44,240 bases of DNA, taken from Escherichia phage NTEC3. Every line of letters begins with the position of its first letter. Position 1 is the first letter of the stretch. Both the position numbers and the translations under genes were made by a program. Shown in pieces: positions 17,618-34,313 of the stretch. Under the pieces are notes generated by a model. It saw nothing but the letters and a program-made list of their open reading frames with translations, did not search any database and had not been told where the DNA came from. The stretch is taken from sequence record NC_073318.1. The stretch is one strand, 5' to 3'.

Positions 17618-19900
17618 GTGAACGCCGAGGCCAAATTACTTGCTGAAGGAATATACAACATGTCCGATGTAATTTTATCCTACTCGTGGTCCCGTCGCAA
17701 CGCGCGGGCAGAGAAAAAGGATATAAACGTCAGAACCACGCATGCGGCAACACTGGACGACCTGAAAGAGTTAATCCAGCCGCTCGATGCTGTTCGTGAC
17801 GGGATTAACCCTAAGACCGCGCCCGGCTATATCACAGCCGCGTGCGACTCTACGCACAGCACCGTAAAAGACCCGGAAACTGGGGACTTTAAGCAAGCAC
17901 GTAAAGGCTTCTTCTATCGCTGTGACGCGTCTGTAAGCAAATCGTCGCTCGCCTATCTGGACTTTGACAGTGCAACGCCGGAGGAGTATCAGGAAGCGGT
18001 GCGCCTGGTTAAGCGCAGCCGCCAGGCTATGTGCCTTTACACTACGGCATCCCATACTGATGAGGTCCCCCGCTTCCGCGTCGTCATGCCGCTAGGTCGC
18101 CCGGTCGAAGGTGGTGACATCATCCGCGTTCGTCATGGATTGCTGGAGCACTTCTTTAAAGGCATGGGCGCGGACCGCAGTGGTTTTACTCTGTCGCAGC
18201 CGATGTACCTGCCACCGGTCGGCTCTACCGTTATCTGGTCACGACGCAACGACCTGATTGACCCGGACGAGTTGCTGGAAGGTATCCCTGCCGTTGACGT
18301 TAGCAGCGCATCGGATTACCAGATACCTGAAGAACTGCGCACCGCGTTTACTGATGCGTTCGAGGCACTGGCGTTTGAGTACGGCGGCATCATGACGCCC
18401 CGCGGCCTTAAGATGCCAGCTACACCAGAACACGCAGAAAACTACAGCGACCCGACGCCTCGCCCGGACGACTTCCTGTTGTGTTTTCCGCGCGAGGGAT
18501 ATGAAGCGCCGAACGTAACCATGATTCACGACACCGACATTACGGCAACTGAAGGCATGTCTCCGAAAGAGGTGTGGAAGTATGCGTGCGACGCGACCGG
18601 GCTGCCGTTCAGTGAAGTGGCAGAGGCCATAGGTTGGGGTGCGCGTGAATCCGTTTCATGCAGCCTCGACGACCTGGAAGACGAGGATGACTCAGAGGAG
18701 TACGAGCTACCGGAACCTGTAAAGGCTGATTTCGTCGTAGAAGGGTATATGCCGTCGGATTGTATATGGGATATCGTCGGGGAGTCGGGCACATACAAAT
18801 CGTTCTATACTCTGGGGATGATGTACCTTAGCGCCGCCGGATACCGGTTCGCCGGGGCGGACACCCAGCGTTGCCATCACTTCTATATCGACGGTGAGGG
18901 GGGTGCTGCTACACGTACACGTATTGACGCACTCGCGGCTAAATACGGCGAGGAAGGTAAAGATTATGTACACGTCATCGATATGGGCGAAGTCGGCAAA
19001 CTGAAGAGCCTGATTAAGTTAATGCGCGAAACTGCCGGCGACGAGCCAATCGGCATGGTCGCGTTCGACACCCTAAACCAGACGCTGGCCCTGACGATTG
19101 ATAAGTTCGACGAGAACAGTTCATCAACGGCAATCGGCATGGGTAAAGTCATCGCCATCCTGAAAGAAGTGCGTGACGCGACTAAAGCCGCAGTAGGCGT
19201 TGTCCACCATACGCCGAAGGGTGGAAAGAAAGCACGCGGCAGTGGGGCGCTGTATGCGGGTGTTGACGTGGAACTGACAATCGAACGTGCAACCGACCGT
19301 CAAATAAACGTATACCACTCGAAATTTAAGCACGGTCCTCAACAGAAAACGGTTGGCATGGTGCTGGAGTCTGTGCAGTTCCGCGAAGCTCCGCCGCCGA
19401 AAGAGTACCGTGCGGTTGAGTTCCTGGGGGGCACAGAAGAATACGGCACAATCGTAAACCTGGACCTTCCTGAACCACACAAGGCGCTTGTGTTGATGCC
19501 GTGGGGTTTCGAGCCGTTCAAAACTGACGAGGAGAAAGAGCGGGAAGAAGGGTTGACGAAAGAAGGTAAGCAAAAAGTAAAGGAAGAAGTTAAACGCGGC
19601 AGGGATGAAGTAAGGAAGGAGTCAATACTTTCGGCACTGGAAGACCTGCAACAGTCAGATGACACAGGTCGCGGTTTTACTCAGCAGCAGATAGTGGCTC
19701 GTTCCGGTGACTTCTCTGTGACTAACACCCATCTTGATAAAATGTTGAAAGATGGAGAACTAATGCTTGGTTGCGATGCTAACGGCGAAGTAGTACCGAG
19801 AACATATCGTATACCCGAAAGAATAGGGGATAGATTAAGGCCGAAGACACTATACGAACCAAATGAGATGCTGGTGGTGACAGAGGAGGATTTGGAATAG
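17618..19900 (+). CDS. DNA primase / helicase (RepA/DnaB-like ATPase domain)
   Basis: 760 aa; Walker A-like GESGTYKS, Walker B MVAFDTLN, VVHHTPKGG block typical of RepA-like ATPases; C-terminal VTEEDLE. Confidence 0.7.
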   Translation: MNAEAKLLAEGIYNMSDVILSYSWSRRNARAEKKDINVRTTHAATLDDLKELIQPLDAVRDGINPKTAPGYITAACDSTHSTVKDPETGDFKQARKGFFYRCDASVSKSSLAYLDFDSATPEEYQEAVRLVKRSRQAMCLYTTASHTDEVPRFRVVMPLGRPVEGGDIIRVRHGLLEHFFKGMGADRSGFTLSQPMYLPPVGSTVIWSRRNDLIDPDELLEGIPAVDVSSASDYQIPEELRTAFTDAFEALAFEYGGIMTPRGLKMPATPEHAENYSDPTPRPDDFLLCFPREGYEAPNVTMIHDTDITATEGMSPKEVWKYACDATGLPFSEVAEAIGWGARESVSCSLDDLEDEDDSEEYELPEPVKADFVVEGYMPSDCIWDIVGESGTYKSFYTLGMMYLSAAGYRFAGADTQRCHHFYIDGEGGAATRTRIDALAAKYGEEGKDYVHVIDMGEVGKLKSLIKLMRETAGDEPIGMVAFDTLNQTLALTIDKFDENSSSTAIGMGKVIAILKEVRDATKAAVGVVHHTPKGGKKARGSGALYAGVDVELTIERATDRQINVYHSKFKHGPQQKTVGMVLESVQFREAPPPKEYRAVEFLGGTEEYGTIVNLDLPEPHKALVLMPWGFEPFKTDEEKEREEGLTKEGKQKVKEEVKRGRDEVRKESILSALEDLQQSDDTGRGFTQQQIVARSGDFSVTNTHLDKMLKDGELMLGCDANGEVVPRTYRIPERIGDRLRPKTLYEPNEMLVVTEEDLE

Positions 19901-19927
19901 GTAAAAAGAAAGGGGCTTTAAGCCCCT
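19900..19927 (-). terminator. terminator hairpin at 3' end of XRE gene
   Basis: AGGGGCT-TTA-AGCCCCT stem-loop; minus strand followed by TTCTTTTTAC. Confidence 0.45.
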
Positions 19928-20133
19928 TCACCTAACGCCAGCCACTTGGCGTCTACTTCCAGAACTTCCGCCAGTTTGAACAGCGTTGCCGGGCGGACGT
20001 CCTGAGTTACTCCAAGTGCCAGTTGGTTAATCGCGCCCTGGGAAACGCCGGTCAGGGCCGCCAAACGGCGCTGGGAGATGCCGAGTTCTTTGCGGCGTTG
20101 TTCTACACGGATGCCTAGTTCAGATGGTTGCAT
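19918..20133 (-). CDS. XRE-family (Cro/CI-type) HTH transcriptional regulator
   Basis: 71 aa; LGISQRRLAALTGVSQGAINQLALG is a canonical XRE HTH; RBS AAGGAG; divergent from plus-strand promoter. Confidence 0.75.
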   Translation of the reverse strand: MQPSELGIRVEQRRKELGISQRRLAALTGVSQGAINQLALGVTQDVRPATLFKLAEVLEVDAKWLALGEGA

Positions 20134-20154
20134 GTCAATTACTCCTTAGTCAGT

Positions 20155-20183
20155 TGATATGTGAATAGTACCATATTAATTAT
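20155..20183 (-). promoter_or_regulatory. candidate promoter for XRE repressor gene
   Basis: Minus-strand -10 TACTAT (plus coordinates 20155-20160) inside AATAGTACCATATT palindrome, 22 nt upstream of XRE start codon; -35 weak. Confidence 0.4.
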
Positions 20184-20197
20184 TTTAGAAAAGCCCA

Positions 20198-20226
20198 TTG
20201 ACATGTGAATAGTTCGCTATTATAGT
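20198..20226 (+). promoter_or_regulatory. class B sigma70 promoter, TTGACA-N17-TATAGT, operator in spacer
   Basis: -35 20198-20203, -10 20221-20226; spacer carries AATAGTTCGCTATT palindrome; drives gene at 20258. Confidence 0.6.
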
Positions 20227-20257
20227 TAGCCCATACCAAACGAGAGGAGAGAAACAA

Positions 20258-20758
20258 ATGTTAGAACAATTCTTAAAATTACTGGAACGTTTCGTAGTTG
20301 CACATGAACTGATTGCTGCGAACAGTGCGAAACAGTCAGCACAAGTTGCAGCGCCGTTAGAAGTAGAGACGGTAGTGTATACCAAAGAAGCGGTAGCTGA
20401 GTGCGAAAAAGAAGCAACAAAAGAAATCCCTGTTGAAGGTGAAGACATCGTTGACGCTAAACCAGCAGAAGAAGAGAAGCCGAAACGCAAGCCGCGTAAA
20501 GCTAAAGTAGAGGAGCCGACTCCAGAACCAGAAGAAGAGAAAGAAGAGGTCGATTACCAGTCTCTTCGTGACCAGATTCAGGCTATCGACGATGCGATTA
20601 ACGAAGGCCCAAGCGATGCCGCGTGCGACGATTCCGATGAACTGCTGGAGGAGTTCACCGGTAAGAAAATGAAGATTGCCGCGATTAAAGACGAAGACCT
20701 GGCTGAATACCTGAAACGCCTGACGGCAATCAAGAACAAGTATTTCGAAGAAGAATAA
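20258..20758 (+). CDS. acidic low-complexity protein, unknown function
   Basis: 166 aa, Glu/Lys-rich; RBS GAGAGGAGAG; 32 nt after class B promoter. Confidence 0.5.
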   Translation: MLEQFLKLLERFVVAHELIAANSAKQSAQVAAPLEVETVVYTKEAVAECEKEATKEIPVEGEDIVDAKPAEEEKPKRKPRKAKVEEPTPEPEEEKEEVDYQSLRDQIQAIDDAINEGPSDAACDDSDELLEEFTGKKMKIAAIKDEDLAEYLKRLTAIKNKYFEEE

Positions 20759-20801
20759 TTTATCTGGCGGCCTCCGGGCCGCTTTAACAGAGGGTCGTAA
20801 T

Positions 20802-21074
20802 ATGATTTACCAACTCTACCGAGGTATTGACCGACGGGATAACACAGAGGCGTTGTGGCTGTTGCGTGCGCCGTCCGGCGCGCACCAGATGGAAGAGATG
20901 GCCTACCTCGGCAAAGTACCGAAGCCGAAAGATATAGGCCGTCACCTGTCGCAGATTAAGCGCACGACATTCGTTAAAAGTGACTTTTATGTCTTCGAGT
21001 CGATGTATAGCTGGGCGATGCATTGTGACCACAAGACACGACATTTAATTGACCAGTGGGAGGTCAGGGTATGA
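20802..21074 (+). CDS. hypothetical protein
   Basis: 90 aa ORF with GAGGG RBS; overlaps next gene. Confidence 0.45.
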   Translation: MIYQLYRGIDRRDNTEALWLLRAPSGAHQMEEMAYLGKVPKPKDIGRHLSQIKRTTFVKSDFYVFESMYSWAMHCDHKTRHLIDQWEVRV

Positions 21075-22312
21075 TTTTAAAAGAACGCGGCGGCAATAAC
21101 GATGTGCACGCCCTGCTGTCGCCGTCAGGGGCTAAAAAGTGGCTAAGCTGCGCCGCATCGCTGGCCTGTGAGAAAGATATTCCCAACACGTCAGGTAAAG
21201 CCGCCGTTACAGGTACAGCGTGCCACACCATAGCGGAGGTCCATCTCAACGCCTATATCCGCGGAACTGCACTGCCGTTAGAGCGTGAAGTTGGCGCTTA
21301 CGTGCTGGACGAGGGTAAAGGCCAGATTAAGGCGCTAATCAGCCCGATGAAAGGTGCTGTACTGATTACGGCGGACATGATTGAGCAGGTGCGCAAGTAC
21401 ACCGACTACTGCAAAGCGATTATAGACGTAGCGACTTACGCCAAGCTGGAAATGCGTGTCAATCTTACTGAGGTATTGCATCCGGGGTATGAAGGCGTTG
21501 AGACGTTCGGAACCGCTGACCTCGTTGCTGTCCAGGAACTGGCAAACACCGACGAGCACATGCTCATTATCGGCGACATGAAAACCGGGCGGCATCGCGT
21601 CGAAGCGAAAGAAAACAAGCAGCTTATGCTTTACGCTCTCGGTGTTTATCGTCGACTCAAGAGACGTTATAACATAACAACCGTTCGTCTGGTCATCTTC
21701 CAGCCTTACGCTGGGGGCGCGACAGAGTGGGACATCTCGGTTGAAGGACTGGAACTGTTCGCTAAGTTCGCACAGAAACGCGCGCTGTTAGCGCTTGATG
21801 CGTATTTCCGTGGCAAGAAGAACCTGAAAGCGTCGGACTTCAAGCCATCGGTAGATGGTTGTCAGTGGTGCCGGTTCTCTGAACAATGCGCTGCGCGTAC
21901 AAAGACGGTTAATTCTGTACTGGCGGAAGAACTGGAAGACGACTTTGTGCTGGAACTGACGCCGGAGCAACTCGTAGCTGAGTATGAGAAGTTGCCGCTG
22001 TTGCGCCAGCACATCGACAAGGTTGAGAAAGCTATGGCGGCCGCGTTGCATTCAGGTAAGAAAGTTCCTGGTTACAAGTTGGTTGAAGGCCGCCCGGGTA
22101 ATCGTGCATGGAAAGACGCGGAGAAAGTAACAGAACTCTACGGCGACAAGCTGACTAAAGAAGTGCTCATGTCACCTACCGAAGCTGTTAAAGTCATACC
22201 GGAAGAAGAACTGAAAGACTTCATTACCCGTAAGCCAGGCGCACCATGTGTCGCAACGGCAGACGACAAACGTCCTGAGTGGAATCAGGTAACAGAGGAG
22301 GATTTGGAATGA
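21071..22312 (+). CDS. DUF2800-like PD-(D/E)xK (Cas4/RecB-like) nuclease
   Basis: ADLVAV ... IGDMKTG nuclease-like motifs and C-terminal Cys cluster CQWCRFSEQC; likely start ATG 21071 after GGGAGG; C-terminal VTEEDLE. Confidence 0.65.
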   Translation: MILKERGGNNDVHALLSPSGAKKWLSCAASLACEKDIPNTSGKAAVTGTACHTIAEVHLNAYIRGTALPLEREVGAYVLDEGKGQIKALISPMKGAVLITADMIEQVRKYTDYCKAIIDVATYAKLEMRVNLTEVLHPGYEGVETFGTADLVAVQELANTDEHMLIIGDMKTGRHRVEAKENKQLMLYALGVYRRLKRRYNITTVRLVIFQPYAGGATEWDISVEGLELFAKFAQKRALLALDAYFRGKKNLKASDFKPSVDGCQWCRFSEQCAARTKTVNSVLAEELEDDFVLELTPEQLVAEYEKLPLLRQHIDKVEKAMAAALHSGKKVPGYKLVEGRPGNRAWKDAEKVTELYGDKLTKEVLMSPTEAVKVIPEEELKDFITRKPGAPCVATADDKRPEWNQVTEEDLE

Positions 22313-22512
22313 TTCAAGTAAATGAAATGCCCACAGATAAAGATTTTGTGATGATATGGCGCTGGGGCGGTTATATCCATTCGGAATCGTTTACGTTCCT
22401 GAACGGCACGATGGTGCGATACAACCATGTGGAGGATGAATTCGAACCCGTTGATATGAATGATTTCGAGAACATAGTCCGTATTGCGAAATTTTATTTG
22501 ACACCTGAATAG
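22309..22512 (+). CDS. hypothetical protein
   Basis: Likely start ATG 22309 (MIQVNEM) after GAGGAGG; 67 aa. Confidence 0.45.
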   Translation: MIQVNEMPTDKDFVMIWRWGGYIHSESFTFLNGTMVRYNHVEDEFEPVDMNDFENIVRIAKFYLTPE

Positions 22513-22526
22513 TTAGCTATTATAGT
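22498..22526 (+). promoter_or_regulatory. class B promoter upstream of DUF2815-like gene
   Basis: TTGACA 22498-22503, 17 nt spacer with AATAGTTAGCTAT, TATAGT 22521-22526. Confidence 0.55.
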
Positions 22527-22585
22527 TCTAATCACTGACCGGGCAGCTTCCCGGAGTAAACGAAACTTAAAAGCGAGAAATTAAG

Positions 22586-23212
22586 ATGGGTATTAAACTG
22601 AATCTGCGTAAAGTAAACACTGCTTGGGTTAACGTATTTGAACGTGAAAAAGACCGTGAAAACGATGATGGCTCAATCACTAAAGGCCAGTACAGCGCGA
22701 CTATCATCCTGCCGTCTGACCATGCTCAAATCGATGCACTCTACGACACCGTTTACGCTGTAGTTGAAGAAGCGTTAGGCGCAGCCGCTGCCGAGAAATG
22801 GATGAAGTCCAACTACGGTGAAGGTAAGCACATGGATAAATGCGCGATTAAAGACATTGCCGAGCGCGACAATCCGTTTGAAGACTTCCCGGAAGGCTTC
22901 TACTTCAAAGCGAAGGCACAGAAACAGCCGCTGATTGTAACCTCTAAAAAAGGTGAGACTCAGGTAGAGCAGGACTTCAACGTAGACGGCGAACAGATTG
23001 AAGGTGAACAGGTTTACAGCGGATGCTTAGCTAACGTAAGCGTTGAAATCTGGTTCAGCCAGAAATACAAAGTCCTCGGCGTTAACCTGCTGGCGATTAA
23101 ATACGTTGGCGAAGGCAAAGCGTTCGGCGGTTCTAAAGTCGCTGCGAGCGTCAATGACCTGGAAGACGACGAAGAAGATGAAGCACCGCGCCGCGAACGT
23201 CGCCGCCGCTAA
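22586..23212 (+). CDS. DUF2815-like protein (ssDNA-binding candidate)
   Basis: 208 aa; sits between DUF2800-like nuclease and DNA polymerase as in the known DUF2800-DUF2815-PolA phage module; acidic/basic C-terminus. Confidence 0.55.
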   Translation: MGIKLNLRKVNTAWVNVFEREKDRENDDGSITKGQYSATIILPSDHAQIDALYDTVYAVVEEALGAAAAEKWMKSNYGEGKHMDKCAIKDIAERDNPFEDFPEGFYFKAKAQKQPLIVTSKKGETQVEQDFNVDGEQIEGEQVYSGCLANVSVEIWFSQKYKVLGVNLLAIKYVGEGKAFGGSKVAASVNDLEDDEEDEAPRRERRRR

Positions 23213-23231
23213 TATCTGAATCAATTTAACT

Positions 23232-23256
23232 AAGGCCCTTCATTGGGCCTTTTTAC
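23232..23256 (+). terminator. terminator / attenuator between DUF2815-like gene and DNA polymerase
   Basis: AAGGCCC-TTCATT-GGGCCTT hairpin followed by TTTTT, 16 nt before polymerase ATG. Confidence 0.45.
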
Positions 23257-23271
23257 TAGGGGTCAAAAATA

Positions 23272-25452
23272 ATGAGTTACCTGTTCTTAGACTTTGAAAC
23301 ATTCTCAGAAGCCGATTTGAAGAAAGTCGGTTCTTACGCTTACGCCGAACACCCGTCAACCGAAGTGCTTATCTGTACATATGCTTTTGACGACGAACCT
23401 GTGCGGGTATGGGATTGCACCGACGGCAGCGACATGCCGGGGGATTTACACCGCGCACTGCGCCGCCTTGTTAAGCCCAACAGCCGCATCAAGATGGTGT
23501 GGCACAACGGTGGACTTTTCGACCGCCTAATCATGAAACACTGCTGGGACTTTGATATTCCGGTAAGTAACACCATTGATACTATGATTTGGGCGTTCCG
23601 TCACGCGCTGCCGGGTTCTCTTGATGCGCTGTGCGAAGTGCTGGGCGTGTCTGCAGACAACGCGAAAGATAAACGCGGCAAGGCTCTGATTAAGCGTTTT
23701 TCTAAACCTACGCCGAAGAACTACAAAATCCGCCGCTACACCGCCGATACGCACCCGGACGAGTGGGCGCTGTTCATCAAGTACGCCGTTAGCGACATCA
23801 CTGCGATGCGTGAAGTCTTCCATAAGCTGCCGCGTTGGGGTAACTCCGAGTTCGAAGACCGTGTACTGGAACTGGACCAGTTGATTAACGACCGTGGGTT
23901 TAAGGTTGATGTGACGCTGGCGGAAGCCGCGATTGAAGCCGTGGAAAAACACAAGGCCAAGCTACAGGAAGAAGCACAGCGCAAATACGGCGGCTCGCTT
24001 ACTGGTAAAGACTTCCTGCCGATTCTGCGTGAACTGGCCCCCGCACACCGCATACACAACGCACAGAAGTCGACGCTGAATGACCTGCTGGCCGATGATG
24101 ATTTACCTGACGACGCCCGCACGATTATCGAAATGCGCCTCGGGGCCGCGTCAACAGCGTCCACGAAATATAACCCGCTGCTGTTAGGCCGCTCGTCGGA
24201 CGACCGACGCCGCGGTTGTATCCAGTACGGTGGGGCAAAGCGTACGTTACGGTTCGCGGGTAAAGGCTTCCAGCCACAGAACCTGGCGCGCGGGTACTAT
24301 CACGATGATGAACTGGATAAAGGTATTTCAGCGTTACTTAAGGGCCGCGCGCATCGCCGTTTCGATGTCGCTAAGCTAACGGCATCGACGGTGCGTAGCT
24401 GCATTATCCCGGAAGCCGGAAAAAAGTTTGTCGTCGCCGATTACTCTAACGTTGAAGGTCGGGGGCTTGCGTGGCTGGCAGGCGAAGAAACCGCGCTAGA
24501 TACGTTCCGCGCCGGGCTGGACATTTACTGTGTAACCGCGGGTAAGATGTTCGGCATGGAGCCGGATTACATTAAGAAGGAACGCAAAGACTTGCGCCAG
24601 ATTGGTAAAGCCTGCGAGCTTGGCCTCGGCTACGCTGGTGGTGTTGGCGCTTTCGTTCAGTTTGCTAAGAACCTCGGACTTGACCTTGTTGATATGTCAA
24701 AAACAATGGACGGTACTTTCCCGGACCACATCTGGGCGGCTACTGCACGCGGCTATGAATGGGCACGTATTCAGGAAGCCAAGCGACCGCCGCGACCCGG
24801 GGAGAAGGATGACCGACCATCGTATATTCTTGATAAGAAAGTGTGGCGTACCTGTGACGCTATCAAGCGTATGTGGCGAGAGTCACACCCTGAAACAGTA
24901 GCTTTCTGGCGAGATATTGAAGACGCAGCTATGGCCGCTATCCGCAATCCAGGTAAAGAGTTCACCGCGGGGCCTAGGGGGGTTAAGTTTTCGCGCAACG
25001 TAGAGACAGACAACAACGGCAACAAAGTCGCCGGCTGGTGGTTGCGCATGACGTTGCCGTCGGGTCGCGTTATGTCTTATCCGGGCGTCGGGTTAAGCGT
25101 GTCGAAAGAAACAGACGAAGATGGAAAAGTGTCTACTAACGTACGCATCAAGTACCAGGGGGAGAACCAGTTAACCCGTCAGTGGGGCTTCCAGTACACC
25201 TACTCTGGTAAACTCGTGGAAAACTGTACTCAGGCGCTGTGCCGTGATTTGCTGGCCAATGCACTGCTGAACGTTGAAGCAAACGGCTATCCTATTGTGC
25301 TTCACGTACACGACGAAATTATCTGCGAAACACCAGATACGCCAGAATACAATGTTGCAGAGCTTGAGCGGTTGATGTGCGAATTACCGGAGTGGGCGGA
25401 GGGGTTCCCTCTTGTAGCGGAAGGTGCGGAGATGAAGCGATATGCCAAGTAA
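23272..25452 (+). CDS. family A DNA polymerase with 3'-5' exonuclease domain
   Basis: 726 aa; N-terminal DFETFS exonuclease motif; C-terminal VHDEIICE polymerase motif C. Confidence 0.85.
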   Translation: MSYLFLDFETFSEADLKKVGSYAYAEHPSTEVLICTYAFDDEPVRVWDCTDGSDMPGDLHRALRRLVKPNSRIKMVWHNGGLFDRLIMKHCWDFDIPVSNTIDTMIWAFRHALPGSLDALCEVLGVSADNAKDKRGKALIKRFSKPTPKNYKIRRYTADTHPDEWALFIKYAVSDITAMREVFHKLPRWGNSEFEDRVLELDQLINDRGFKVDVTLAEAAIEAVEKHKAKLQEEAQRKYGGSLTGKDFLPILRELAPAHRIHNAQKSTLNDLLADDDLPDDARTIIEMRLGAASTASTKYNPLLLGRSSDDRRRGCIQYGGAKRTLRFAGKGFQPQNLARGYYHDDELDKGISALLKGRAHRRFDVAKLTASTVRSCIIPEAGKKFVVADYSNVEGRGLAWLAGEETALDTFRAGLDIYCVTAGKMFGMEPDYIKKERKDLRQIGKACELGLGYAGGVGAFVQFAKNLGLDLVDMSKTMDGTFPDHIWAATARGYEWARIQEAKRPPRPGEKDDRPSYILDKKVWRTCDAIKRMWRESHPETVAFWRDIEDAAMAAIRNPGKEFTAGPRGVKFSRNVETDNNGNKVAGWWLRMTLPSGRVMSYPGVGLSVSKETDEDGKVSTNVRIKYQGENQLTRQWGFQYTYSGKLVENCTQALCRDLLANALLNVEANGYPIVLHVHDEIICETPDTPEYNVAELERLMCELPEWAEGFPLVAEGAEMKRYAK

Positions 25453-25573
25453 ACTGATTATTGCGGTACTGGCGGGATTTGCCGCCGGTGTCTACTGTCA
25501 CGAGGGACAATACGGCATGATGGTTGCCATATTGGGCATGTTCATCGCAATTTATATGTGGGTGCTGGAATGA
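25442..25573 (+). CDS. micro-ORF, single-pass membrane peptide (43 aa)
   Basis: Hand-found; ATG overlaps polymerase stop; hydrophobic core IIAVLAGFAAGV / MMVAILGMFIAIYMWVL. Confidence 0.35.
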   Translation: MPSKLIIAVLAGFAAGVYCHEGQYGMMVAILGMFIAIYMWVLE

Positions 25574-25659
25574 AAATTTACTGGTTTTATGAAGAAGACT
25601 GCCGAATCTGCCCGCGCTGCGGGATTGAGCATACGAAACGTGAGGGGTGCGTATTATGA
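25570..25659 (+). CDS. micro-ORF, Cys-rich zinc-ribbon-like peptide (29 aa)
   Basis: ATGA overlap with previous ORF; CRICPRCG ... C pattern. Confidence 0.3.
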   Translation: MKIYWFYEEDCRICPRCGIEHTKREGCVL

Positions 25660-25809
25660 CAATGTTTGTATTTAGGACCATAGTAACCATGCTCGCACTG
25701 TTACTCGGTGCGGGAATAGCTGCTATGTTCTGTTACGGCCTGTTCTTTCAGTTTGCCGGTGTTGCCATTCTAGGCTGGGTTTTCCTTACCTGGATGCTGC
25801 GGTCATGAC
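25656..25809 (+). CDS. micro-ORF, membrane peptide (50 aa)
   Basis: ATGA overlap both sides; two hydrophobic stretches. Confidence 0.35.
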
Positions 25810-26089
25810 TAAAGAGGGACGCATCCAGAAATACGCAAAAGAGCGATTCGAGGCCATTGGTGGCCTCGTTCGTAAGCTGTCTTATGAGGGGCGCTCCGGC
25901 GCCCCCGACCTGCTGGTAATTCTCCCCGGCGGCATCGTCTGGTTCGTCGAGGTTAAGAAAGACGAAAACACGAAGCCAGACCCGCACCAGATACGAGAGC
26001 ACGAGCGGATGCGTAAACGCGGTGCAAATGTTTTTGTCGTCGGTTCGTTTAAACAGGTTGACGACCTAATAGCGAACTATTATAGTTAG
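25805..26089 (+). CDS. VRR-NUC domain nuclease
   Basis: 94 aa; GAPDLLVI ... VEVKK fits the PD-(D/E)xK VRR-NUC signature. Confidence 0.65.
   Translation: MTKEGRIQKYAKERFEAIGGLVRKLSYEGRSGAPDLLVILPGGIVWFVEVKKDENTKPDPHQIREHERMRKRGANVFVVGSFKQVDDLIANYYS
26058..26086 (+). promoter_or_regulatory. class B promoter upstream of 63 aa / methyltransferase / SNF2 genes
   Basis: TTGACG 26058-26063, spacer with AATAGCGAACTAT, TATAGT 26081-26086; overlaps 3' end of VRR-NUC gene. Confidence 0.55.
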
Positions 26090-26119
26090 TCCTACACCAA
26101 CAATATAAGGAATTGAGAA

Positions 26120-26311
26120 ATGAAACACGAATATGACCGAAAACCTGCACGTGACATCGTACCAGGCGACATGATTTTCAACGTTAAGACCCGTCGTCCT
26201 GTTGCCGTTGATACAGTGTTCGTCGAGTCGAACGGTAAACTGGTTATCGAAGATGTAACCGGCAATATTACGGCGTTCGGGCGTAAAGAGTTAGTTCTGG
26301 TGGCAAAATGA
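26120..26311 (+). CDS. hypothetical small protein, coupled to methyltransferase
   Basis: 63 aa; RBS AAGGAA; stop overlaps methyltransferase start (ATGA). Confidence 0.45.
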   Translation: MKHEYDRKPARDIVPGDMIFNVKTRRPVAVDTVFVESNGKLVIEDVTGNITAFGRKELVLVAK

Positions 26312-27102
26312 ACTATTACAACGAATGGGATAAAGGCGCAGCCGCGTGGCTGCGTGAATTAATAAAACAGGGTCACATACCTTTTGGAGTTGTAGATGAA
26401 AGAAGCATTACCGAAGTTAGACCAGAAGACCTTGACGGGTTCACCCAGTGTCATTTTTTCGCGGGTATTGGCGGCTGGCCTCTCGCGCTCAGACTTGCGG
26501 GAGTTTCTGAAGATACGCCTATATGGACGGGAAGTCCGCCTTGCCAACCGTTTAGCACGGCAGGAAAGCAACTCGGACAGTTCGACCAGAGACACCTCGC
26601 ACCTGTGCTCCTCGACCTCATCAGCGAGTGCCACCCTCCAGTCATCTTTGGGGAGCAGGTTGCGGCAGCAATTGCAAAATCGTGGATGTGCGATTTACAA
26701 ACTCACCTGGAAAGAGAAGACTACGCCGTCGGGTTTGCCGTACTCCCAGCTTGTAGCGTCGGCGCACCGCACAAAAGGAATCGATTGTTCTTCGGAGCGC
26801 AGCAACTGGCCAACACCGTGTGCGAACAACTCGGCGGGAGCAGGCCATCAGGGCAGGAACGGGGGCCACAATCTGCAAACAGAGGCATCTCTGACACAGC
26901 CAATCCGCCTAACGGGTTCTGGTCAGATGCTGACTGGCTCGGATGCCGGGATGGAAAATTCAGGCCAGTTGAACCCAGCACATTCCCGCTGGCTAATGGG
27001 GTACCCGCCAGAGTGGGACGATTGCGCGGTTACGGCAATGCTATCGTCCCGCAAGTAGCCGCTGAATTTATAAAGGCGTTCATGGGGGCCGTAAATGAGT
27101 AA
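26308..27102 (+). CDS. DNA (cytosine-5)-methyltransferase, compact form
   Basis: Motif I FAGIGG, motif IV PCQPFS (catalytic Cys), ENV-like GEQV, motif VIII-like HKRNRLFF, motif X GNAIVP; only 264 aa. Confidence 0.7.
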
Positions 27103-28519
27103 GTTTCAAAGGCGCGAATACCAGAAGCTAATGACTTCGTTCATGTTGCGGCACCATCGCTGTAATATTTGGGCGAGCATGGGCGCCGGGAAGACTGGCA
27201 GCGTACTGTGGACATTAAACCGACTGTTCCGCAACGGGCAGCTTACAGAAGAGGACCGCGTGTTAATCCTCGCCCCGTTGCGCGTTGCGTCCGGCACATG
27301 GCCGGCGGAACAAACTAAGTGGAATTTCCCATGTCTGCGTGTCGTAGACGCGACCGGTTCAGAGAAGCGCCGCATCGCGGCGCTGGAGTCAGATGCTAAC
27401 GTGGTGTGCACGAACTACGAAGTTATCGAGTGGCTTATTGACTACTACGGCAAAGACGACTGGCCTTTTACCGTTATCGTTGCCGATGAAAGCACGAAAC
27501 TGAAGTCATTCCGCAGCCGTTCAGGCGGCAGCAAGAGGGCAAAGGCGCTTAGTAAAGTGGCATTTGGCAAAGTTAAGCGTTTCATTAACCTGACTGGCAC
27601 GCCGTCACCAAACGGCCTCAAGGACTTGTGGGGGCAGAACTGGTTTATCGACGCAGGCGAGCGCCTGGGGTCATCGTACACAGCATTCACCGACCGCTGG
27701 TTTAACTCGGTACAGAAAGGGAAATCTGCGATGGCCCGTGAATACCACGCACGCCCGGGTGCGGATAATGAAATTCACCAGAAGATGAAGGACATTAGTC
27801 TCACGATTGACGCCGCCGAGTGGTTCGGGTGTGAAGCGCCGATTATTGTGCCGGTTGAAATCGACCTGCCGAAGAAAGCACGTCAGGCGTACATCGATAT
27901 GGAGGAGAAGTTATTCGCGGAACTGGAAAGCGGAGAAGTTGAAGCGGCTAACGCTGCGGCGAAGACGTCGAAGTGCCTACAGATTGCCTCCGGTGCCGTG
28001 TATGTATCGGGGCCAGATGGCGAATCAACCAAAGAATGGGAGAAAGTGCACGACACGAAACTTGATGCGCTGGAGTCAATTGTGGAGGAGTTGCAGGGCG
28101 CGCCGTTGCTGGTCGCCTATCAGTTCAAGCACGAACTTGAGCGCATCCTTAAGCGATTCCCACAGGCGCAGGCGTTTTCCAAAGGCGCGAAGGGTAATAA
28201 GCAGATGGAAGCGTGGAACCGCGGCGAAATAGAAATCTTATGCGTACACCCTGCGTCAGCCGGGCATGGTTTGAATTTACAGGACGGCGGCCATCATCTG
28301 GCGTTTATTTCACAAGGCTGGAATCTTGAGCACTATTTGCAGGTTGTCGAGCGCATCGGCCCTGTTCGCCAGAAACAAGCTGGGCACGAGCGCCCGGTGT
28401 TCCTTTATCACATAGTCGCTAAAGACACGCTGGACGAGGTTGTTGCCGCGCGTACCGACGAGAAGAAATCGGTACAGGAAGAGTTGCTTAACTACATGAA
28501 GAGACGAGGTAAGAAATGA
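27095..28519 (+). CDS. SNF2-family helicase / ATPase
   Basis: Walker A ASMGAGKTG, DExx box VADEST, LTGTPSPN motif III. Confidence 0.75.
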   Translation: MSKFQRREYQKLMTSFMLRHHRCNIWASMGAGKTGSVLWTLNRLFRNGQLTEEDRVLILAPLRVASGTWPAEQTKWNFPCLRVVDATGSEKRRIAALESDANVVCTNYEVIEWLIDYYGKDDWPFTVIVADESTKLKSFRSRSGGSKRAKALSKVAFGKVKRFINLTGTPSPNGLKDLWGQNWFIDAGERLGSSYTAFTDRWFNSVQKGKSAMAREYHARPGADNEIHQKMKDISLTIDAAEWFGCEAPIIVPVEIDLPKKARQAYIDMEEKLFAELESGEVEAANAAAKTSKCLQIASGAVYVSGPDGESTKEWEKVHDTKLDALESIVEELQGAPLLVAYQFKHELERILKRFPQAQAFSKGAKGNKQMEAWNRGEIEILCVHPASAGHGLNLQDGGHHLAFISQGWNLEHYLQVVERIGPVRQKQAGHERPVFLYHIVAKDTLDEVVAARTDEKKSVQEELLNYMKRRGKK

Positions 28520-28653
28520 ACATCATAGCCCCGATTCCAGCATTGCAAAAACGTATCAAGGAACTCGAAGAGGAGGTTCTACGCCTACGGCAACAGAGAG
28601 ATGCCGCTAATGCGCAACTGGCGTTTGTGCTGGAGAAGTTATCAGAAGAGTAG
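28516..28653 (+). CDS. small coiled-coil peptide (45 aa)
   Basis: Hand-found; ATGA overlap with SNF2 stop; followed by terminator. Confidence 0.3.
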   Translation: MNIIAPIPALQKRIKELEEEVLRLRQQRDAANAQLAFVLEKLSEE

Positions 28654-28654
28654 A

Positions 28655-28684
28655 GAAAAGGCCCCGTTTGGGGCCTTAGTTTTA
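28655..28684. terminator. bidirectional terminator between replication module and tailspike gene
   Basis: AAGGCCCC-GTTT-GGGGCCTT hairpin; T-runs on both strands. Confidence 0.6.
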
Positions 28685-30862
28685 ATCGCAAAGTAAGGAT
28701 TTGGTGAAGTTTGGCACCCACGGCATCCTGTCAGAAATTACTAAATCTCTGATTAATATGCCGCAGTCTGCAGATGCGCCGCTATAGGTAACTTGGATAT
28801 TAAAACTAGTTGCCTGGCTTCTGGCAAGACTGATGGCTGCAAAATAATCGTTACCGGTCTGTGGTGATATAGTCACATATGAGGTTCCTAGTCCTATTTT
28901 TACGACAGTATTTGTCCCATAACTGGTAAATTGATGACGGAAAAGAACATAAACGCGGTCGTGATTGTTGAAAACCGCGTTTGTAGTTGTGATTGGTATT
29001 GTGAATGTTTTTGTGGTAGCGTCTCGTGCAAAGGTAACCTGTAGATTATCACCAGAAGTAGCCATAGTTACGCCTGATTCCTGCGGGTAAGCAGAACCGT
29101 TATTGGCGTTAAGCGCAGACCTTTTAAAAAGAACAAATGGTTTTGAAGACATTTGTTCACTCTCCCAGGTACTTGTCCCACTATCGTCCCAAAAAAGACC
29201 CTTAAAATAATACATTACACTGGATGACACGGTCCAACCGGCTAAATCAAACATGCTCCCGGTTGCATCTGTTAAGTCACAGTTAATAAATCTATTAAAT
29301 CTGTTGGTGGAGTTCTGGTATACGCAACAAGGTGTCGTTGTTCCTGTTGTGATATTAGGGTCCGCAAATGATACTGAGTTGAATGTTACGTATTCGCACC
29401 CATCCATGATAATGCCGCCGCGAGTCACAGCGCCGGAGCGTTGGATATTAGTAAATGTACTGTTACGCATATTCGCAAGAAGGGCAAAAGTACAGTCCGC
29501 TGTTAATGACCCATCGGCATTGTGGGCTTCTCCGTGGAAATCTGTAAAATGAATATCGCGGAAGCCCTTGACATCAGATGCACTATTTCCGGCTAGGCTT
29601 TCTGAATAGATGGCGTATGTTGCGCGACTCGCCCATCCTACACGGTCGAATGTACATGCAAAAATCTGTCGGTCTACATGGCAGGAGAACCTGATACTAG
29701 GGTTGCCAGATGTCGCCCATGAAGGGTTGTTGTCGATTGTGCTGAAAAACATACAATCCCGGAATGACAGGCCTGTTAAATTTCCACGGTCGATATCTGT
29801 ATTAGTCCTGAGCACAAGCCCACCGCCTAATGTCCATACGTGGCTTAATTCCAGGTTCTCCACGTCTCCAGATGTTGCGTTTTTAGGGTGGATAACAACA
29901 GCAGCATCGAAGGTTCCAGATACAGATATCCGACGGACGACGGAATTACGGCAGCCGCCAATGTGCAGCCCAACCACATTCGGCTGGGAACCATCTGCGT
30001 TTATCTGGAAACCTTCAATATAAAACGGGTCTTGTCCTGTGTTATCAATAGCGACTATAGCGGGTCCTGTGGAACCGGCAATTACGTTAGTGCCAGTAAA
30101 GTCAGGGAGAGCCATAAAGTATGTTTCTGGGTAGACCCCAACAATACGCGTCCTTTTTGGAAGGTTAAGAGTAGAATCAAGCCAAAAGAACCCAGCCGGG
30201 AAACGTAAAGTAACCCCAGTACCGATATTCTCGCTAGTTGCTGCCGCTAAAGCCTGCTCAATGTATGTCCTTACGCTTCCTAGTGCTTTTGACGCGTTAA
30301 CATCGTTTAGAGCTGCGATCACGTTAGCTGGAAGGTAGTCAAGTATGTTTATCTCTGTTTTTGCTGCTTGAGTCTTGCGGTAGTCAAACTCTGCCTGTAC
30401 GGTCCTGCCGGATGTTGTCCCAACTAACCCTGCGCCAGTGCTTAGGGCCAAATCACGGCGCAATGCAGCTTCACTAACGGCAACCCATGCGGTCTGGCCT
30501 ACTCCGCCCGTAGACGCCGGGGTTGAAGATGCCGGGATGGTTTTTGGCAGAGCACCCTTCCATGCATAATAGTTGCCGTCGCCTGATGGCCCTGGCCACA
30601 ACACCGCCAGGTCAGCGTCGTTAACGCCCAAAGTCCCACCTGTTTCGAATGTGAAAGACGCAGGTCTGAACCCGGCGTCGCGCAACACGGCGGGGAGTGT
30701 CTTCTGCGTCTGCCCTGTAACCTGATTTGTTGCGTAATCAATATCAGCACCAGTAGCAACACCACCGGATTTACCAGTAATAACCTCAGCTTCAAAAATC
30801 TGGTGCTTCTTGGCGGTCTGTAAATCCGCCAGGCTTAAAACGTCACCGCATACGCTTGACAT
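28682..30862 (-). CDS. tailspike / tail fibre protein (receptor binding, beta-helix candidate)
   Basis: 726 aa, last gene of tail module, Gly/Asn/Thr/Ser-rich repetitive C-terminal part; fold not verified. Confidence 0.55.
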   Translation of the reverse strand: MSSVCGDVLSLADLQTAKKHQIFEAEVITGKSGGVATGADIDYATNQVTGQTQKTLPAVLRDAGFRPASFTFETGGTLGVNDADLAVLWPGPSGDGNYYAWKGALPKTIPASSTPASTGGVGQTAWVAVSEAALRRDLALSTGAGLVGTTSGRTVQAEFDYRKTQAAKTEINILDYLPANVIAALNDVNASKALGSVRTYIEQALAAATSENIGTGVTLRFPAGFFWLDSTLNLPKRTRIVGVYPETYFMALPDFTGTNVIAGSTGPAIVAIDNTGQDPFYIEGFQINADGSQPNVVGLHIGGCRNSVVRRISVSGTFDAAVVIHPKNATSGDVENLELSHVWTLGGGLVLRTNTDIDRGNLTGLSFRDCMFFSTIDNNPSWATSGNPSIRFSCHVDRQIFACTFDRVGWASRATYAIYSESLAGNSASDVKGFRDIHFTDFHGEAHNADGSLTADCTFALLANMRNSTFTNIQRSGAVTRGGIIMDGCEYVTFNSVSFADPNITTGTTTPCCVYQNSTNRFNRFINCDLTDATGSMFDLAGWTVSSSVMYYFKGLFWDDSGTSTWESEQMSSKPFVLFKRSALNANNGSAYPQESGVTMATSGDNLQVTFARDATTKTFTIPITTTNAVFNNHDRVYVLFRHQFTSYGTNTVVKIGLGTSYVTISPQTGNDYFAAISLARSQATSFNIQVTYSGASADCGILIRDLVISDRMPWVPNFTKSLLCD

Positions 30863-30874
30863 ATAGAGTCCTCT

Positions 30875-33442
30875 TTAATTAAAACCATTGCTGAATCCAT
30901 CGGAGAAACCGCTGCCGTATGGCGCGACGCCGTCGTATTTATAGAATCCGTCGTCATAGTTGTAGCCAGTAATCTTGACCGTGCGGTCGTCGCCCGGGTC
31001 GATTGAAGAAACAACTATCTTCTGAGCATTATGCCTTGCTTCGTTGCCGAATGAAAACTCAGTTTTTAGCGCGCTATTCCCCGTGTAGATTGCTTCTTCC
31101 GGCGCGGAGAGCATAATCACCTCGCGGTCGTGGCTTCCTTTGATAACCGAGATACTCTGCACAGAGCCATCGCGCTTCTTGAGGATGATGGAGTGGTCGT
31201 CTCCGGGGGTAAACGTAACTGGCTGAGACAGCGTAAGCGTAAGCCCGTTAACGGCAACAACATAACCATCCTGCGGCGCGATGCGTGAGCCTTTAACCAC
31301 GCTGATTACGCCGCCCGGTGTAGCGAGTGCCCCCTCTTCGGTAGCTTCGAACTCTACGACAACTTTACTTAACGCGTTGCGCTGGTAGCGACGCCACGCC
31401 AGCCAATATGCCTGCTGATAGTTACGTACGCCCTTCGATTCATATTCCTCGGTGTTTGCTCCGAGTTCTTCCGGGATATAAATCGTTTCCTGTACGTTAG
31501 TATCCGGGTCGATGTATGAGAACGACAGGCTATCATAGGTTGTCGAATCGTTGAACGTGCGCGTCCATTTCTCTGTACCAGTAGTTTTGCTGCGGTGGGT
31601 GAACACCATCTCAGGCCCAGCAACCGGACGGTCGAATCGCAGCATAATATCCGCACCTTTACGGTACGCAGTACAGAACACGGCTTCCGCTATAGTCTGA
31701 ACGATGTCCTGCATCGTGGTGTCGTAGTCGTCGAACGTGTAGCAGAACTGCCCGGCTAATTCACTGCCAAAATACGACTCAATTTCTTCCTGCACGGCAA
31801 GTAACTTGTCCATATTTGCCGTTGTCAGTTCCAGATTACCCACCACAGGGTCACGCGCCAGCCTGATTAGCGACTGCACGGCCTGAGTGTTCGGTGTCAT
31901 TACCGTATCGAATACGCCGTTACCTAAGTATTTGTAACACATCTCGGTTGCTATCATGCGTAGTTCCGGTTCTGACACCTCCGCGGCACGTGGCGTTTGT
32001 TTACGAGCGCAGTGTACGGTGGTTCTGTTGCCGTAGTGTGGGGTTGTGTCCAGAGACTGCCCGTACAGATTAGTGAAAGTAACCTCATCACTAACAGTAC
32101 CTTCAAAATCTTTATCGGTGTCGGAAACACGACGCATACGGGCGCGGAATCTGGAAGCAGTTGGTAAACTTCCGTAAAGAGTAATACCTGTGTAATCCGT
32201 GTTCCGGCCTGTTACGGTTCCTTGTACAGTAAATATATCACCTACAGGCTGTTTCAGCTCATCAACCATCTGGTATTGCAGTTCCACTGTCACTGAAGCG
32301 CGGTTATAGTCGCCGTTGTATTTATACATGCCGTTGCTGGCGGCGACATTGGCTACAACACGGTCGACAGTACCGCGGGTGATGTACGCCCATTCAGAGA
32401 GAGAAGCCGCGTAAGTGTCCGCCGGGCCTATAAGATGGTTACCCTCTTCACCTATAAACCACACAGACGCCCCTAGCTGGTTCCATACTGATTGATTTGT
32501 ACTGACGTCCACAATAAGGGTCGTTTCACTAACAGAAAGAACCGTGTACCTCCCGTCCAGGTTAACCTCATTACCCAAAGACCCTGGGGTTGTATCTGCA
32601 TATACGTTATCGAAGTATGCCAGGTCCCCGACCGCCAAAAACTCATCGAAACCAGCGTCATCGCCTACTACAACGCCGGTTGTTCCCTGCCGCTGGACAG
32701 TGTAGTCCTGCACGTCTATAGCGATATCATTAGGGGCGGGAAGAACAGCGCCATCGACATCGGCGTTTTTAAATGTAACGTACAATTTCTGGTCTATAGG
32801 GTCGCCGATATGCAATTGTGGTGTGCTGGTGTTATTCGGCGAAGTGTAAGGAGAATACACCGTCACCGACGAGCCAGTTATCTCGCTGATTCGGGTATCT
32901 GCCTCAGTTACACCGTCTTCCTCAATATGCAGATACCCTCGACCGGCGTCATAGTACGCATATTCAATAAGCGCCCCCGTGGCGTTAAACACCTTATACG
33001 TCTGCATCAGGTCATTGGGTATAGTCTGCACTGTCCCGCAGATATCATAGGAACGCTCATAAGGTCGTGGCTTGTTTGAGCGGTCGGTGAGACTGTTGTT
33101 AGGCGACGTAGCCTGATTGTTGGTAGCGGAATAATTAGCGTTAGCCGCTGTGTTTAGCCCGAACAATTTGGCGATTGGCTTAAGGATGAAACTGAATACA
33201 CTCCCGATGGCGTCGCCAATGCCGCCGCCAGCGCCCTCAATAATGTGGTACACGGCGTCCTCGTCTTTGAGCGCGTCGAAGTCGTCTGTAACATCAGTAT
33301 CATCACCAATCTCGCCAAGATAGACGCGTACCGGAACGCCGTCCGGGATACGGTTAACGACAAACTCCATCGGCATCCCGACGTGTTTTGTACGGTTGAA
33401 AGCGCCATCAGCGTTTCGCGTGTAGTGCAAGATTATCGCCAA
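30875..33442 (-). CDS. tail tip / host specificity protein (lambda J-like)
   Basis: 855 aa; position after K-like gene in lambda-type order. Confidence 0.55.
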   Translation of the reverse strand: MAIILHYTRNADGAFNRTKHVGMPMEFVVNRIPDGVPVRVYLGEIGDDTDVTDDFDALKDEDAVYHIIEGAGGGIGDAIGSVFSFILKPIAKLFGLNTAANANYSATNNQATSPNNSLTDRSNKPRPYERSYDICGTVQTIPNDLMQTYKVFNATGALIEYAYYDAGRGYLHIEEDGVTEADTRISEITGSSVTVYSPYTSPNNTSTPQLHIGDPIDQKLYVTFKNADVDGAVLPAPNDIAIDVQDYTVQRQGTTGVVVGDDAGFDEFLAVGDLAYFDNVYADTTPGSLGNEVNLDGRYTVLSVSETTLIVDVSTNQSVWNQLGASVWFIGEEGNHLIGPADTYAASLSEWAYITRGTVDRVVANVAASNGMYKYNGDYNRASVTVELQYQMVDELKQPVGDIFTVQGTVTGRNTDYTGITLYGSLPTASRFRARMRRVSDTDKDFEGTVSDEVTFTNLYGQSLDTTPHYGNRTTVHCARKQTPRAAEVSEPELRMIATEMCYKYLGNGVFDTVMTPNTQAVQSLIRLARDPVVGNLELTTANMDKLLAVQEEIESYFGSELAGQFCYTFDDYDTTMQDIVQTIAEAVFCTAYRKGADIMLRFDRPVAGPEMVFTHRSKTTGTEKWTRTFNDSTTYDSLSFSYIDPDTNVQETIYIPEELGANTEEYESKGVRNYQQAYWLAWRRYQRNALSKVVVEFEATEEGALATPGGVISVVKGSRIAPQDGYVVAVNGLTLTLSQPVTFTPGDDHSIILKKRDGSVQSISVIKGSHDREVIMLSAPEEAIYTGNSALKTEFSFGNEARHNAQKIVVSSIDPGDDRTVKITGYNYDDGFYKYDGVAPYGSGFSDGFSNGFN

Positions 33443-33798
33443 AATTCAATCTCCGTGTACGTGTCTCTGAGGTCTGCCAGCCTGTCAAGCCGTACCTGAC
33501 GGGAAGCAAGCTCGCAATGGCTCACCATCCCGTCGAAGTAAACTCCTGCGTGCCACACGATACGGCCGCCGCGGCGATACCCCATAAGCACCGCACAGAA
33601 GTTTTCAGGCTTATCAATTTTTGTAAGTCCCTTCGTGTTGCGATGTCCTTCGTCGAACGCTTCGTTAATCGCCGTTGGGCTTGTAACGTCGAACGCCGGG
33701 GTTTCTAACCCGGCATCGGCCCGTACAATGCGAACGTGATGCCAGCAATTGCGCTTGCGAAAGTCGTAAGGTATGCCCGTGTAGTCGTTAATATTCAT
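33433..33798 (-). CDS. tail assembly protein, NlpC/P60-like (lambda K-like)
   Basis: 121 aa; candidate Cys (NCWHH) and His (WHAGV, SHCE) residues arranged as in NlpC/P60 peptidases. Confidence 0.45.
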   Translation of the reverse strand: MNINDYTGIPYDFRKRNCWHHVRIVRADAGLETPAFDVTSPTAINEAFDEGHRNTKGLTKIDKPENFCAVLMGYRRGGRIVWHAGVYFDGMVSHCELASRQVRLDRLADLRDTYTEIEFWR

Positions 33799-34310
33799 GT
33801 GGTCAACAGGCCGCGTAATAACGGTATCTCTTTAGGTGTCATCAGTATACCAGTGCTTCGCTGGTTCAGCATAGGTGTACCAACATCCGCGGAGAACTCG
33901 CCCTTCTCCTGGTTGATGGCCTGCAACTCATACATGACAGGACCGTCAGCCGGATAAGACAGGTCTGTGCTGACGTAACGACGGAAGACGAACTTCGGCA
34001 ACTCGGTGTTACTCATAGGGATTTTATCCATCTCATCGTCAAGTTGATTGAGAATATCCGGTAAAGTAAATGTCGTCGTCTGGTCCATATCACTGTTGTT
34101 AGCCGCACCCGACGCTTCCATAGGAGTAGGTTCGAACGTGATTGTTTCTCCCGTCTCCAGCGTTGCCGTAAGTTCCTGTAGCCCGCGCACAAGATAGTAC
34201 GTCTTTGACAGCAACGGGTGGCTGATTTGCAACGTGATGTAGTCCATCTCGCCGTCGGGATTTGAGGCCAGCTTACGGCGATAGGCGGCTTCTACAGATT
34301 CCTGGCTCAT
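33795..34310 (-). CDS. minor tail protein
   Basis: 171 aa; overlaps both neighbours within tail module. Confidence 0.45.
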   Translation of the reverse strand: MSQESVEAAYRRKLASNPDGEMDYITLQISHPLLSKTYYLVRGLQELTATLETGETITFEPTPMEASGAANNSDMDQTTTFTLPDILNQLDDEMDKIPMSNTELPKFVFRRYVSTDLSYPADGPVMYELQAINQEKGEFSADVGTPMLNQRSTGILMTPKEIPLLRGLLTT

Positions 34311-34313
34311 AAA

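Follow-up and report, generated by a model that had tools for sequence, protein, structure and literature searches.

How can a cytosine methyltransferase of 264 amino acids (aa) recognize its target when only about 80 residues separate its motifs VIII and X? This question is raised by a gene of Escherichia phage NTEC3 (NC_073318.1), of which we analyzed a stretch of 44,240 nucleotides (nt), hereafter the window. A preliminary description, made from the letters of the window, had identified the gene as a C5 cytosine methyltransferase with motifs I (FAGIGG), IV (PCQPFS), and X (GNAIVP) and motifs VI-like and VIII-like, and had noted that little space was left for a target-recognition domain (TRD); each of these points was confirmed. 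It had overlooked that the +1 frame of the gene contains a 220-aa open reading frame (ORF), located at 26396-27058. We consider it probable that a C5 cytosine DNA methyltransferase of two polypeptides is encoded here, in which one stretch of DNA is read twice, like M.EcoHK31I. The two ORFs are referred to as alpha and beta, and approximately 660 nt (83% of alpha) are read in two frames. The comparisons described below cover a set of 87 loci, i.e., 80 IMG/VR loci, six GenBank loci, and the window.

26308-27102, plus strand: alpha, 264-aa predicted catalytic subunit of a C5 methyltransferase, motif order II-III-I-IV-VI-VIII-linker-X
26396-27058, plus strand: beta, 220-aa ORF wholly within alpha, proposed target-recognition subunit; in the +1 frame at 87 of 87 loci

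Conservation of the nested frame across phages

Relative to the alpha N-domain, the beta domain was in the +1 frame at every one of the 87 loci, with identities of 51-100% for alpha and 31-100% for beta. Both frames were open in every locus; in the third frame, the median number of stops was 15, and no locus had fewer than 5. Alpha was typically 259-401 aa long (two first-start calls gave 556 and 591 aa), and beta was 220-342 aa long, apart from 445 and 449 aa in two IMG/VR loci (L012 and L013). The beta stop was located beyond the alpha stop in 9 of the 87 loci. In L012 and L013, the beta ORF runs approximately 430 nt past the alpha stop and has a different C-terminal architecture. The recurrence of this two-frame layout at 87 independent loci also led us to reject a sequencing error or a pseudogene as the explanation.

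A tblastn search with beta residues 97-220 detected the same domain in distant phages at 35-60% aa identity (E of approximately 1e-8 to 1e-37), including Pseudomonas PMG1, P2-like Salmonella SW5, Klebsiella Seifer, and Vibrio Fayden. At each distant locus inspected, an alpha-like ORF likewise enclosed the beta domain in its +1 frame; the nesting is conserved. In the Pseudomonas phage PMG1 locus (L003, 1194-2027), the alpha-like frame has no YYNE N-terminal block in its stop-to-stop window. Beta matched PHROG 1008 and PHROG 31772, and its family comprised 9282 clusters (50% identity) at E<=1e-3 and 167 at E<=1e-30. From the best 150 beta-like matches, 13 proteins were inspected, and none of them had catalytic motifs. 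We found no earlier account of nested phage methyltransferase genes in the literature searched.

Some beta relatives carry additional segments. One of 497 aa (P0241) is fused to a segment whose NPPY motif (WCNPPYSS) is characteristic of N6-adenine (Dam-type) methylases, and another of 758 aa (P0242) to a long unrelated C-terminal region. Three others (P0280, P0364, and P0384) have an extra cysteine-rich domain of approximately 150-200 aa before the conserved beta domain, possibly zinc-ribbon- or HNH-like.

Gene callers report one of the two frames; therefore, these genes are routinely mis-annotated. In the closest colinear record (ON548432.1), beta alone is the ORF annotated as "methyltransferase", and Pfam and NCBIfam have no beta model. 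In PMG1, the beta frame alone is annotated, as "DNA methyltransferase". Both overlapping coding sequences are annotated in phage K1G, where that of beta was originally labeled "Mte8-like"; no explanation of this label was found in the literature searched.

Mutual constraint between the two frames

The conserved parts of beta surround a variable part, as follows.

26612-26803, plus strand: conserved beta N-domain, residues 73-136, ending in VASAHRT; dual-coding with alpha motifs VI-VIII
26807-26899, plus strand: variable beta cassette of type "E", residues 138-168, candidate target-recognition domain
26900-27040, plus strand: conserved beta C-domain, residues 169-215; dual-coding with the conserved alpha C-terminal segment ending in RVGRLRGY
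26966-27016, plus strand: beta motif IX-like segment, inside the C-domain, with a resemblance to M.HhaI KLHPRECARVMGYPDSY

In pairs of loci 45-80% identical, alpha codons encoding the same residue were scored for the use of an identical codon. The fraction of same codons given the same residue was as follows.

Alpha residues 1-103, before beta and over the unconserved beta N-terminus: 0.40
Alpha residues 104-171, over the conserved beta N-domain: 0.63
Alpha residues 198-244, over the conserved beta C-domain: 0.66

For beta codons, the same measure was 0.39 across the cassettes, a region free of constraint on the alpha side, and 0.57-0.80 in the stretches with conserved alpha. That is, conservation of synonymous sites in one frame coincides exactly with conservation of the other frame; therefore, each frame constrains the other, and both are under purifying selection. 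The locus thereby offers a strong test case of overprinting under double constraint, in which both products are apparently subunits of one enzyme and are kept across many unrelated phage groups.

We then compared the three frames in the variable region, i.e., from motif VIII of alpha to its conserved C-terminal segment. The mean pairwise local BLOSUM62 score was 56.9 for the beta frame, 37.3 for the alpha frame, and 36.7 for the non-coding third frame, and the beta frame outscored the alpha frame in 538 of 600 pairs. The W.TP motif occurred 68 times in the beta frame and once in each of the other two. Meanwhile, the alpha frame contained no stop in 5302 codons of the variable region (72 unique loci), whereas 175 stops (range 142-214) would be expected if the beta codons were shuffled synonymously. 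The alpha linker is rich in G, R, A, S, D, and E, a composition that looks disordered. In the variable region, alpha is a read-through linker only, and beta is the sole frame conserved as protein.

These results bear on the claim of the preliminary description that the gene encodes a single compact enzyme with a tiny TRD. On such a reading, alpha alone would be a self-sufficient C5 methyltransferase, and the +1 ORF would be a non-functional by-product. Although alpha does have motifs I, IV, VI, VIII, and X, and hhalign sets its own DGKFRPVEP on the motif IX region of M.HhaI, the alpha segment from motif VIII to motif X shows no more conservation than the third frame and is merely stop-free. 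In addition, the +1 frame encodes a protein that is open in all 87 loci, is conserved in distant phages, suppresses synonymous variation in alpha, and has initiation signals of its own (described below). We regard a self-sufficient alpha as very improbable.

Initiation signals of beta

The putative translation start of beta is embedded in alpha codons.

26386-26398, plus strand: beta translation start with Shine-Dalgarno GGAG at 26386-26389, a beta-frame TAG, and ATG at 26396, all within alpha codons F26-E31 (F26-G27-V28-V29-D30-E31)

A Shine-Dalgarno sequence followed by ATG was present in the +1 frame within alpha nt +54 to +129 in 62 of 80 unique loci, versus 0 of 80 in each other frame. 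Upstream of the conserved domain, the beta frame stayed open over a median of 88 codons, versus a median of 10 in synonymous shuffles of alpha. In many loci, the conserved D-E-R-S-I-(E)-D-V codons of alpha read AAGGAG...ATG in the +1 frame (26392-26409 in the window). As these codons spell start signals of beta, part of the conservation of the motif may serve beta initiation.

A further possibility is that two programmed frameshifts yield a single chain: a shift of +1 past motif VIII and one of -1 ahead of motif X would give a canonical enzyme with motifs I-X. Such an alpha-beta-alpha (A-B-A) read-through does put the catalytic motifs, the WPTP cassette described below, the motif IX-like segment, and motif X in canonical order, whereas the A-B-A chimera scored no better than native alpha against PF00145. 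Beta 73-136 and alpha 203-240, the segments that would be skipped, each show amino-acid-level selection of their own, and the beta frame is open approximately 88 codons upstream, with a Shine-Dalgarno sequence and ATG. We rejected the double frameshift as the main model because of this selection and of the initiation signals of beta, although slippery sites were not searched for, and we give it very little credence.

The catalytic core and its rearranged motifs

The features of alpha within the gene are listed below.

26320-26409, plus strand: motif II-like (NEWDK) and motif III-like (VDERSI) segments, residues 5-34, upstream of motif I
26458-26475, plus strand: motif I FAGIGG, AdoMet-binding loop, residues 51-56; aligns to M.HhaI FAGLGG; invariant in alignment A1
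26539-26556, plus strand: motif IV PCQPFS with catalytic Cys79, residues 78-83; invariant in alignment A1
26647-26661, plus strand: motif VI FGEQV (Glu of ENV), residues 114-118; aligned to M.HhaI
26764-26793, plus strand: motif VIII (HKRNR; QxRxR type), residues 153-162; aligned to M.HhaI
26803-26907, plus strand: read-through linker, residues 166-200; unconserved, disordered-looking composition
27034-27051, plus strand: motif X GNAIVP, residues 243-248

PF00145 (C-5 cytosine methylase) matched alpha with 59 bits, only over residues 72-163 (profile positions 64-159). PPCQPFS (alpha 77-83) falls inside this match and aligns to PCQ of M.HhaI, which was the best solved relative of alpha (E=3e-7; hhalign probability 98.5%). 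Alpha also matched PHROG 363 (E=2e-82). By these matches, alpha is the catalytic core of a C5 methyltransferase with predicted enzymatic activity. The family is recognized by ten colinear motifs and a TRD between motifs VIII and IX in one chain, and alpha does not have this organization; the PF00145 and TIGR00675 matches to alpha both end at motif VIII. In a 429-aa alpha relative (P0120), an insertion of approximately 150 aa lies inside the conserved C-terminal segment, after FRPVE.

Profile alignments of alpha with M.HhaI showed a 35-residue gap between motifs I and IV, where motifs II and III belong. The conserved alpha N-terminus, YYNE[IFW]DP.AA.WLR.LI..G.I..G.VDERSI.DV, resembles motifs II and III, and alpha residues 4-163 aligned to TIGR00675 profile positions 26-158. 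When the motif I block was moved in silico before the N-terminal block, PF00145 scored 80.8 instead of 59.4 bits and covered profile positions 5-158 colinearly, and TIGR00675 scored 61.6 instead of 40.1 bits. In the controls, a reversed N-terminal block gained 0.4 bits (PF00145) and 1.2 bits (TIGR00675), and deletion of the block did not change the score. These gains on reordering, together with the controls, indicate that the motif order is II-III-I-IV and that it reflects translocation of a block, not circular permutation. A 37-column profile of the alpha N-terminus matched no methyltransferase in the PDB; therefore, the support for the motif order comes from the full-length profile tests.

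Alpha shares a non-canonical motif order with natural, circularly permuted C5 methyltransferases such as M.BssHII and M.Alw26I (PMC5944983). In a REBASE survey, all natural permuted C5 methyltransferases were circular permutants with the break in the variable region (PMC5944983). In permutants of the M.BssHII type, motifs IX and X precede motif I, whereas in alpha, motif X is C-terminal and the motif I block is translocated. With the II-III-I order, the C5 methyltransferase fold would prove more tolerant than is known so far.

Cassettes of beta

The variable part of beta is modular. The 118 beta proteins that we parsed contained one to four "WPTP" cassettes each, approximately 30-46 aa long. 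The cassettes fell into 56 types (at least 55% identity) and were shuffled between proteins (A, C-B, A-B, D-C-B, D-A, G-C-E, and I-C-E). Beta of the window has one cassette of 31 aa, type E. Its C-terminal two-thirds include VASAHRT and, after it, NWPTPCANN.

Short tandem target-recognition modules between motifs VIII and IX are known from the multispecific C5 methyltransferases of Bacillus phages (SPR, phi3T, and rho11s); related phages differ in how many modules they carry and in which order. The one to four tandem cassettes of beta can be likened to these modules. The Bacillus-phage enzymes are single polypeptides with canonical motif order, whereas the cassettes here are located on a separate chain, with one cassette in the window. 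We infer that the cassettes probably determine target specificity. If they do, they would provide a natural modular route to retarget cytosine methylation, and might predict which host restriction systems a phage evades, with a bearing on the choice of therapy phages.

The cassette region at 26797-26908 had no substitution relative to the colinear phage vB_EcoS_SCS92 (ON548432.1); the flanking methyltransferase sequence is approximately 5% diverged. The unchanged region could result from double constraint or from a recent exchange of cassettes.

A two-chain model and its precedents

We favor the nested two-chain enzyme because an artifact was ruled out, a frameshifted chain is disfavored, and the layout matches the precedent of M.EcoHK31I. 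In this model, alpha would be the catalytic and AdoMet-binding subunit, and beta would initiate at its own Shine-Dalgarno sequence and ATG, built from the conserved G-V-V-D-E codons of alpha. The conserved beta N-domain would probably be a docking surface for alpha, the single 31-aa WPTP cassette would probably read the DNA target, and the beta C-domain would supply the motif IX-like segment. Most likely, beta would thus take the place of the small domain for DNA recognition, which lies between motifs VIII and X in a canonical enzyme, and the alpha linker would need only to bridge the gap between these motifs. The heterodimer would methylate a specific cytosine-containing site on phage DNA, and this methylation might shield the DNA from matching host restriction enzymes; such protection is plausible.

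M.EcoHK31I from E. coli HK31 (recognizing YGGCCR) needs both alpha and beta, and its beta is encoded within alpha in another frame (PMC2836561; PMC3404938). By the published description, its alpha has motifs I-VIII along with motif X, and its beta has a motif IX-like segment; the layout here is similar, with a candidate motif IX-like segment in beta. Of the hallmarks of this type, we found both the small gene nested in another frame and the large subunit with motifs I-VIII and X. N-terminal deletions of M.EcoHK31I beta led to a progressive loss of association (PMC2836561; PMC3404938), and the deletability of that N-terminus fits the unconserved N-terminus of beta in our loci. The phage enzyme differs from M.EcoHK31I in being an orphan with no restriction partner seen and in the II-III-I order of alpha.

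M.AquI also consists of two chains, the smaller of which carries part of the variable region, motif IX, and motif X (PMC3404938). This small chain can be compared with beta, which carries the variable cassettes and a candidate motif IX-like segment; motif X is located on it in M.AquI, whereas it is located on alpha here. The subunit genes of M.AquI lie side by side without overlapping, whereas alpha and beta are nested in different frames.

The nested architecture is known from one enzyme, M.EcoHK31I; here it is present across a very large phage family, with variable cassettes on the nested subunit. Somewhat short of even confidence, we tentatively propose that this very large phage C5 family, whose 50%-identity clusters number in the thousands, is made up of obligate alpha/beta enzymes with a swappable cassette-array specificity subunit. 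They would be the Gram-negative-phage counterpart of the multispecific Bacillus-phage methylases on an overprinted chain, with cassettes that are stop-free in the alpha frame and an uncatalogued II-III-I-IV translocation in alpha.

Several observations weigh against the two-chain model. The match of the beta motif IX-like segment to M.HhaI residues 270-290 was short, local, and non-significant (hhalign E=0.11), and neither the A-B-A chimera nor the C-terminal fragments alone gained in PF00145 score over native alpha, an outcome that favors neither motif IX in beta nor the double frameshift. As hhalign puts DGKFRPVEP of alpha on the motif IX region of M.HhaI, alpha may keep its own degenerate motif IX. 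Beta had no match among Pfam, NCBIfam, and PDB profiles, and a single-sequence PDB search with beta returned only a chance match to a repeat protein. AlphaFold2 confidence was low (pLDDT 35.7 for alpha and 46.6 for beta), because the supplied alignments held only close homologues, and the models were unusable. The N-terminal 72 aa of beta are poorly conserved and are without amino-acid-level selection of their own; therefore, the true start of beta could be located further downstream. The translation of beta and its association with alpha are presumed from sequence. The TRD of M.EcoHK31I is predicted in alpha, not in beta (PMC2836561; PMC3404938), whereas the variable region of our loci is conserved in the beta frame only. 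Finally, Kagunavirus isolates of the BASEL collection, the genus of the window, are reported to be highly sensitive to the restriction-modification (RM) systems tested there (PMC11990801); therefore, any protection would be narrow and confined to particular sites.

Given the lack of a curated profile that places beta among methyltransferases and the weak motif IX similarity, beta might instead be a separately translated, overprinted protein unrelated to methylation, e.g., a regulator or an anti-defense factor. Against this, beta is always accompanied by alpha, nested in the same way even in phages of very different types, alpha is without any conserved TRD, and the nested beta chain is required for methylation in M.EcoHK31I (PMC2836561; PMC3404938). 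We consider an unrelated role of beta unlikely.

Genome context

The window is the genome of a Kagunavirus (Guernseyvirinae) siphovirus. Its best phage match was 97.6% identical, and no closer database record was found. ON548432.1 is colinear with the window, with equal length (44240) and identical gene coordinates; over 14.8 kb (19800-34600), the two differed by 818 substitutions (approximately 5.5%) and 0 indels. The gene order of the region is DNA polymerase, small ORFs, VRR-NUC nuclease, 63-aa ORF, methyltransferase, SNF2 helicase, 45-aa ORF, terminator, and a convergent tailspike gene. The features around alpha and beta are listed below.

26058-26086, plus strand: sigma-70-like promoter match TTGACG-17-TATAGT, 10 of 12 consensus matches, within the 3' end of the VRR-NUC gene
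26120-26311, plus strand: 63-aa ORF matching PHROG 4879 (function unknown)
27095-28519, plus strand: SNF2-family helicase gene, whose start overlaps the alpha stop by 8 nt (27095-27102)
28658-28687, plus strand: intrinsic terminator-like hairpin closing the operon, 8-bp stem with 6 GC pairs, then a T-rich tail

The preliminary description had placed the 63-aa, 264-aa, and SNF2-like ORFs correctly, and their tight coupling holds: the stop of the 63-aa ORF overlaps the alpha start in ATGA (26308-26311), alpha and the helicase gene share 8 nt, and a plausible terminator follows at 28658. Its promoter at 26058 stands as a 10/12 consensus match; "class B" was a label of its own, and the region contained four such matches against 3.6 expected in shuffled sequence. 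Because this number does not exceed the shuffled expectation, we treat the site as a consensus match only.

The same description had suggested that the methyltransferase could work together with the SNF2 helicase and the VRR-NUC nuclease in a DNA-processing complex. The genes do overlap translationally in this genus and probably have a common promoter and terminator. Against this suggestion, a survey of the 1.5-kb flanks of the 87 alpha/beta loci found SNF2 beside the methyltransferase in 11, VRR-NUC in 8, and a homologue of the 63-aa ORF in 5. In P2-like, Casjensviridae, and Detrevirus phages, the alpha/beta pair occurs in other contexts, often adjoining a Dam-type methylase. As the neighbor genes vary across the loci, the helicase coupling is a trait of the replication module of this lineage and no evidence for a methyltransferase-helicase machine; we judge a dedicated complex highly unlikely.

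In a plasmid search for RM context, all matches, on plasmids and Ralstonia megaplasmids, were either unannotated or labeled "DNA cytosine methyltransferase". Two relatives, KMB35 (H7) and Bas72 (H8), matched the query in two pieces, and the matched region of KMB35 has an annotated HNH endonuclease gene. A 45-aa coiled-coil-like ORF at 28516-28653 overlaps the helicase stop, and the hairpin at 28658-28687 is a strong terminator common to the operon and the convergent tailspike gene.

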